Position numbers and translations under genes: made by a program
Source of the DNA: Eledone cirrhosa
Taxonomy: Eukaryota
Assembly: GCA_964016885.1 (NCBI GenBank)
Contig: OZ024764.1
Coordinates: forward strand, 11,160,001 to 11,224,000
Length of the DNA stretch: 64,000 nucleotides
Direction: 5' to 3'
In this document: positions 24,601-25,246 of the stretch, piece after piece
Numbering within the stretch: position 1 is the first letter of the stretch
Layout of the letters: the number at the start of each line of letters is the position of its first letter
The notes under the pieces: generated by a model
What the model saw: the letters and a program-made list of their open reading frames with translations, nothing else
Databases searched by the model: none
What the model was told of the DNA's origin: nothing

Positions 24601-24651
<51 letters not shown>

Positions 24652-24681
24652 ATATCAAAAGATGGTTAAAAGAGTTCCATG

Positions 24682-24752
24682 TATTTTATTATGCACATTT
24701 CAAAAACAAATATCATCATGCAATAACATTTGTGTTTTCATCAGATAAAATA
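24682..24752 (-). ncRNA. Type I hammerhead ribozyme (inverted arm)
   Basis: Reverse complement of 25041-25111, with stem III ATGTGCAT. Confidence 0.75.
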
Positions 24753-25040
24753 GGAAGACATGATATGAAGGTTAAAGAGCACTTGTGAATAGTGCAGTTT
24801 TAAATCAACAGATTTTTTAGATCTCATTAATTAAATATTTTAATTGTTTCTTTTAACGAACTTTCATGGCTGCTTCAGTCTTCTTCCTTCCTTTCTTTTT
24901 TTGGGGTTGTTTTTTTTTTTGTTATTTTCTTCTTCTTCTTCATTGTCATCTTTTCTCCTCCTCCTCTTCAATCACCCCCCCCCCTTGATTTAAAACTGCA
25001 CTATTCACAAGTGTTCTTTAACCTTCATATCATGTCTTCC

Positions 25041-25111
25041 TATTTTATCTGATGAAAACACAAATGTTATTGCATGATTATATTTGTTTTTGAAATGCGC
25101 ATAATAAAATA
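25041..25111 (+). ncRNA. Type I hammerhead ribozyme, intact core
   Basis: Stem I tattttat/ataaaata, CTGATGA 25049-25055, stem II AAACACAAATG/TATTTGTTTTT, GAAA 25092-25095, palindromic ATGCGCAT, AUA triplet (cleavage after 25103). Confidence 0.85.
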
Positions 25112-25246
25112 CATGGAACTCTTTTAACCATCTTTTGATATTATATATTATGTATACTCCAGTCCTACAAACTGTAGAGTGCTTCTTATCCGATATCTGC
25201 ATTGCTTTATTGTACTACAATAAAACTCACCTCCTACATATATATT

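Follow-up and report, generated by a model that had tools for sequence, protein, structure and literature searches.

Introduction

Among described retroelements, Penelope-like elements of the Hydra clade come closest to the insertion analysed here. In section 11 of the study that describes them (Craig et al. 2021, PMC8557442), these elements have a CxCX5C linker, no CCHH inside the GIY-YIG domain, and CxxC and CxH motifs near the end, and the supplement of that study includes a Hydra family entry for an octopus. A Penelope-like protein is described as cutting and extending both strands in vitro, with starts at two positions on the RNA that set the extent of the tail (PMC11167929), and a minimal hammerhead architecture has been described for Penelope-like elements (PMC4209133). 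Another hammerhead-bearing type, the non-LTR retrozyme, is described as an array of tandem head-to-tail units with a hammerhead in each (bioRxiv 10.64898/2026.07.22.740005). The origin of the inverted, one-tailed insertions of Penelope-like elements is called open in the literature we consulted, and the family described below offers thousands of young copies.

We analysed a 64,000-nucleotide stretch of the Eledone cirrhosa genome (the window) that holds one such insertion. As in the Hydra-clade layout presented in PMC8557442, an inverted 5'-truncated copy stands beside a 3' copy with a tail at one end only, and the (TA)n target, the CxCX5C linker and the missing CCHH are shared as well; to the hammerhead in the repeat described there corresponds a candidate motif here. 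The tail is 87 nt here as against 30-40 nt in the elements covered there, and host DNA between the arms, as in the window insertion, is not described in the text consulted.

The window insertion encloses an inverted copy of nearby DNA

The window insertion consists of short head-to-head 3' ends of a Penelope-like element in (TA)n, with one arm tailed (Table 1). The arms, taken as 24637-24808 and 24985-25156, are 172 nt each and 98% complementary, with 3 substitutions. As a sequence-only reading of this DNA had claimed, the 176-bp spacer between them is the reverse complement of a segment upstream, microsatellite slippage apart: aligning 24809-24984 with the reverse complement of 22541-22717 gave 174 matching positions and 0 substitutions, the only differences being that a (CTT)n tract is 2 bases longer and a (CTC)n tract 3 bases shorter. 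When the tail is drawn to the right, the source lies on the left, inverted.

Table 1. Features of the insertion and of the captured segment's source (window positions)
Feature	Position	Strand	Evidence
Source of captured piece, with original flanks	22541..22717	+	alignment, genome search, short-read contigs with both flanks
(TA)n target, left side	24605..24641		sequence
Left arm: tail-less, inverted 3' end of Penelope-like element; last two bases, CA (24809-24810), common to source and arm (2-nt microhomology)	24642..24810	-	arm alignment, family comparison
Left-arm candidate minimal type I hammerhead motif	24682..24752	-	sequence motif, fold
Captured 176-bp inverted copy of 22541-22717	24809..24984	-	alignment, genome search
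Right arm: element 3' end, without the ATATG that starts most family arms; 0-1 nt microhomology with insert	24985..25151	+	family comparison
Right-arm candidate minimal type I hammerhead motif	25041..25111	+	CUGAUGA 25049, GAAA 25092, palindrome ATGCGCAT 25095-25102, predicted cut after 25103
87-nt 'tail', on one arm only	25152..25238	+	family comparison
(TA)n target, right side	25239..25286		sequence

A genome-wide search of the 3.0-Gb assembly with the 176-mer, in which the tool skipped simple repeats, returned full-length matches only at these two places; the remaining 9 of 11 matches were partial, covering 57-104 of 176 query bases at 75-84% identity. With two full-length copies in the assembly, the spacer is not a dispersed repeat, and the listing of family spacers likewise ruled out a constant part of the element consensus. 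Insert and source do form the long-range inverted repeat that had been pointed out, present as such in the sequence; in a transcript from the locus, the two arms would be expected to pair before it. The captured piece shows no sign of function. An earlier link between the copied piece and an intron was dropped: the GT at 22722-22721 on the minus strand is real and lies 5 nt before the copied piece, but gene evidence nearby is nil, and open reading frames of at least 80 amino acids near the source are mostly translated (CAT)n microsatellite. No RNA data set was listed as holding the place, which weighs neither for nor against the link.

Short reads covering the locus come from three runs of one sample, possibly the assembled one. 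Two short-read contigs span the source within its flanks, and one extends beyond the spacer by 25 nt of the left arm, less than the 31 letters required for a bridge. These data bear on whether a chimeric read or a mis-join duplicated the 176 bp, which we regard as very improbable. None of the listed contig pieces contains the right junction, the reads are available as short-read contigs, and such graphs easily mix copies: one contig, covering 22442-22586 and 24784-24877, leads from the left flank of the source through the shared 176 bp into the left arm. It is probably a graph chimera, but inversion between the copies would yield that join too. Against an artefact stand the left junction, present in a short-read contig, the two microsatellite slips between insert and source, the three substitutions between the arms, and the recurrence described below of the same anatomy, at a family-specific junction, at ten loci on seven contigs.

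Elsewhere in the window, at 5550-5900, 23594-23734, 24405-24480 and 25690-25768, there are fold-backs, or fragments with a hammerhead, that belong to further families, and a long array of 49-bp tandem units extends from 26395 onward. At 62472-62541 (+) there is a weak tRNA-like Rfam match (30.9 bits); similar sequence also flanks family copies (L085 and L142), so it is probably a tRNA-derived repeat.

The arms are 3' ends of a large Penelope-like family

A 29-mer from the arm has 2,208 exact matches in the genome and the best arm copies are 98-99% identical: the family is large and young. Longer copies between the same arms (L043, L041) carry a frame with GIYRDDGL followed by a GIY-YIG-type frame with LIYECKV...TYFG. 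The linker between the reverse transcriptase (RT) and endonuclease frames reads CNCPVKNKC (CxCX5C), the cysteine pair between the two GIY-YIG motifs is absent (no CCHH), and CNLC and CLH occur in L041. Pfam and PDB searches with the RT and endonuclease pieces returned no match; Atlas neighbours at 0.93-0.95, in animal clusters, are annotated HTH_animal, with one cluster having RVT_1 in 19% of its members. Judged from these frames, the element is an endonuclease-positive Penelope-like one, with RT followed by GIY-YIG on its C-terminal side between the same arms, and its CxCX5C linker, lack of CCHH, CxxC and CxH near the end and preference for (TA)n point to the Hydra clade.

Both arms contain a CUGAUGA...GAAA core and a palindromic helix III, with stems I and II present in sequence, in the minimal architecture cited above. 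An Rfam search of the arms gave no hammerhead match, and the folding energies of the motifs are no better than those of shuffled sequences. The sequence-only reading had taken the insertion for a ribozyme fold-back element bracketing its spacer with two self-cleaving motifs. An independent ribozyme element is ruled out, as the same arms bound the longer copies with RT and GIY-YIG frames: the arms are instead the 3' end of a Penelope-like retroelement. Bracketing by two ribozymes finds no support either: the candidate hammerheads are on opposite strands, so that no single RNA carries both in sense. A non-LTR retrozyme array was also rejected, the two units being head to head on opposite strands.

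Capture of local DNA recurs at the join between arms

The family has 1,706 fold-backs whose spacers measure 0-44 nt and 223 in which they measure 45-500 nt, in a survey that required both inner 17-mers intact and a spacer of at most 500 nt and is therefore biased towards clean joins. We sorted fold-backs by spacer length (186 of 205 listed), picked non-element spacers by eye and fetched about 5 kb on each side. Complex foreign spacer sequence was found at 15 loci, the window included, and 10 of them have a near-identical source 0.36-2.1 kb from the spacer, amounting to 11 pieces of 24-176 nt on seven contigs. The proposal that spacers of this family might match DNA within a few kilobases of each insertion was thus borne out at two-thirds of the foreign-spacer copies.

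With the tail drawn to the right and distances given from the spacer, direct sources lie on the left in L076 (787 bp), L077 (1851 bp), L079 (356 bp), L082 (1419 bp) and L083 (1043 bp), and on the right in L080 (1183 bp). Inverted sources lie on the left in the window (2091 bp), L085 (433 bp) and L091 (401 bp), and L078 holds two right-side pieces, one inverted (854 bp) and one direct (1101 bp). Inversion is not the rule, 7 of the 11 pieces being direct. Measured from the insertion edge, the pieces come from 0.2-1.9 kb away, the nearest of the 11 from about 180 bp. All sources are within 2.1 kb although about 4.7 kb per side was searched, for which the chance is 0.45 to the tenth power, or about 3 in 10,000. 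Junction microhomology at the ten loci is 0-5 nt, and at seven of them the insert sits right at the ATATG ends.

As controls, we compared the inserts with other loci. Eight pieces at 7 loci had matches in none of 141 control loci (1.18 Mb). The inserts of L083, L085 and L091 derive from repeats; in each the local copy is 100% identical, while the control loci reaching 97.5% numbered 3, 0 and 5, respectively. Together with these controls, and with a spacer that is neither consensus nor dispersed, the local sources uphold the earlier claim of a templated local duplication at or near the insertion. A second Penelope-like family has one such case among 50 fold-backs listed: the fold-back apex of L212 (G000:C2:163781337-163781475) carries 44 nt copied in direct orientation from a site at a distance of 229 bp, with matches in 0 of 143 control loci.

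Five of the 15 foreign spacers have no local source, which counts against an explanation by local filler. The inserts of L093 and L094 were rejected as local captures, both being dispersed repeats; another matches 12 control loci, and one is a short hairpin in a CAT repeat. For the 47-nt insert of L081 (also L219, G000:C3:31428976-31429066), no source was found within about 15 kb and no second copy in the assembly; the original may have disappeared when the element inserted, or may lie in a gap. Two further loci were kept outside the count, L097 as too simple (microsatellite-like, matching in inverted orientation at a distance of about 1.4 kb) and L101 as too short (a 23-nt exact match about 1.4 kb away). 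The spacer of L100 looked element-derived. No long local insert occurred among 40 consecutive ATATG arms. The capture rate is roughly 0.5% (10 of about 1,900 fold-backs), a lower bound. Local capture is thus a recurrent by-product of the family's insertion, at the join between arms.

The two arms fit two separate primings

Among 107 fetched fold-backs, 97 have exactly one tail and none has two, and the arms within a pair differ at a median of 1 of 150 nt, compared with 7 between copies. Of 40 consecutive arms that start at ATATG, a hand count gave 33 with a partner in inverted orientation; in 7 of the 40, the tailed member ends in the tail or at its edge. Such partners could not be supplied by copying the tail-less cDNA, which argues for two primings. 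In L120, L124, L127, L128, L140, L144 and L146, a full tail-less arm is joined to an inverted piece that consists solely of tail, which is direct evidence of two primings in the sequence itself. The arm pairs fit two rounds of priming, whether on a single RNA or on two RNAs from one source, and agree with the in vitro behaviour of the Penelope-like protein cited above. The partner and tail counts thus make two separately primed cDNAs more likely than the earlier idea of a single polymerase going out and back.

A non-element base precedes ATATG in 4,157 arms; in the first 100 of these, counted by hand, G and T occur 45 times each and A 10 times. The T is accounted for by the (TA)n target. By analogy with L1, the extra G is likely a reverse-transcribed cap, though self-priming stutter can produce it too; 3 of 40 junctions use it in microhomology. 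The transcript is likely a short RNA of about 260 nt with its capped start inside the 3' repeat, and such a start would explain why short fold-backs without open reading frames far outnumber longer ones.

Spacers of 22-55 nt (the first 50 of 185) are mostly repeats of the junction itself in both orientations. Repeated junction copies in both orientations are a pattern ascribed to theta-type joining, and we read them as iterative end-joining synthesis. Some apices also carry tandem stutters of the first arm bases, CATATCAA and longer units, in up to about seven rounds (for example L016, L139, G000:C302:121551-121680 and G000:C11:50738060-50738149). The CATATCAA stutters could be a telomerase-like RT re-priming on the template 5' end, or end-joining synthesis.

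Origin of the captured pieces

We favour, at a probability of about 0.55, the reading that error-prone end joining of two cDNA flaps produced the insert as filler, with a host polymerase of theta type the most likely enzyme. On this model, the endonuclease would cut both strands in (TA)n, and the RT would start on both DNA ends, once at the RNA tail end and once about 87 nt inside. Both cDNAs would then extend as far as the 5' end of a short RNA, probably capped, whose sequence starts with ATATG. As a rule the ATAT palindrome would let the two 3' flaps anneal, or they would do so once a few cycles of abortive priming had passed. At a frequency of about 0.5%, one flap would instead prime on exposed DNA lying 0.2-1.9 kb away from the edge of the insertion, with microhomology of 0-3 nt, copy 24-176 nt, release, and be joined to the other flap, the polymerase at this step most likely being the host end-joining enzyme of theta type. 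The ten loci show two features of theta-mediated templated insertion, a template near the break and short junction microhomology. A stricter rule that the template is always a resected 3' overhang fails on L078, whose two pieces are arranged opposite to simple copying from resected 3' overhangs.

Filler by end joining is not the only source to consider. The element's own RT may have made the insert, by running off the 5' end of the capped RNA and jumping to nearby single-stranded DNA or nascent RNA, with the product joined to the second cDNA, which is close to what the sequence-only reading had proposed. This is a strong rival, though less probable than end joining. It would account for the asymmetry of the direct inserts, 6 of 7 of which leave the G-ATATG end intact on the tailed arm and none on the tail-less arm, with 0-3 nt of microhomology at the tailed end. 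Three of these seven join the intact G-ATATG end with 0 nt of microhomology, a type of join equally compatible with an RT jump or with blunt ligation, which weighs against filler by end joining. The position of inserts right at the ATATG ends points the same way, as does the lack of any foreign apex insert in 38 longer fold-backs with element spacers. Template jumping is described for R2 (PMC11371274) and the use of DNA templates for the L1 ORF2p (PMC11702581). By contrast, sources on both sides and in both orientations, but only within 2.1 kb, suggest break DNA more than a transcript; the five insert alignments listed show no A-to-G excess and no exon joins; and in three loci, L078 aside, inserts sit at deeper junctions rather than at the RNA 5' end (L085, L091 and, weakly, L097).

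In a more specific form, which we consider less likely than not, a telomerase-related RT would read the RNA cap, re-prime repeatedly on the template 5' end, leaving the CATATCAA stutters, and jump to DNA that is exposed as far as 2 kb away from the cut. If the RT did make the inserts, Penelope insertion would combine two-ended priming with filler that the RT itself synthesizes; short local duplications would then have a built-in source, and the captures would record in the genome how far the break opens during insertion.

Whether end joining or RT supplied the filler, both readings place capture at insertion. It is unlikely, less so than an artefact but more so than an RT jump, that a near-perfect palindrome inserted first, broke at its centre, and was then repaired with filler from resected flanks. 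Long palindromes do break at the centre, the abundance of fold-backs with spacers of 0-44 nt fits this sequence of events, and both arm ends in the window are trimmed, leaving 2 of 6 central bases. Seven other local cases, however, keep most or all of ATATG on both arms, often with an extra G, which exceeds a broken CATATG centre, although the search pattern biases this count. In addition, insert and source differ by 11 substitutions in about 950 nt and the arms by 15 in about 1,650 nt; the equal divergence suggests, at low power, that capture is about as old as insertion.

Comparison with known systems

In the Penelope elements of Adineta vaga (Arkhipova et al. 2013, PMC3846280), unique spacers are ascribed to the capture of host DNA, unrelated sequences lie between solo pLTRs, and palindromes occur at inverted junctions, all as here. 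The spacers described there are 0.9-1.5 kb long and mostly between direct repeats, with no local source named in the text consulted, and the palindromes are attributed to self-priming on an antisense template, as opposed to the two primings on sense RNA that fit the present arms.

The templated insertions and twin priming of L1 (bioRxiv 10.1101/2024.08.27.596794, PMC11702581) are also similar, in that less than 250 bp of nearby genomic DNA is copied in; as reported there, these captures are rare too (22 instances; 3 cases), and show microhomology and an extra cap-derived 5' G. Two differences stand out in those accounts: the L1 template is typically within 15 bp of the site, as against none of 11 nearer than about 180 bp here, and the L1 insert sits at the junction of cDNA and flank rather than between two cDNAs. 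For R2, 'snap-back' 5' junctions are described in PMC11371274, in which the 3' end of a full-length cDNA primes further synthesis, either on the cDNA itself or, at lower frequency, on target DNA close by, and is joined afterwards, much as proposed here. The R2 system as presented there involves one cDNA, a fixed rDNA site and cultured cells, with no tail or two-arm structure.

A literature search, with subscription papers mostly outside its coverage, listed no report of Penelope fold-backs with locally templated spacers. The inverted one-tailed layout, host-DNA capture in rotifer Penelope elements, L1 templated insertions and R2 snap-back are already known. New here is a controlled series in which capture recurs at the arm join and draws on DNA at a distance of about 0.2-1.9 kb from the edge of the insertion. 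Each captured piece marks the join of cDNA to cDNA, and together they show that DNA so far from the cut was available as a template, at much greater distances than the 15 bp typical of L1.
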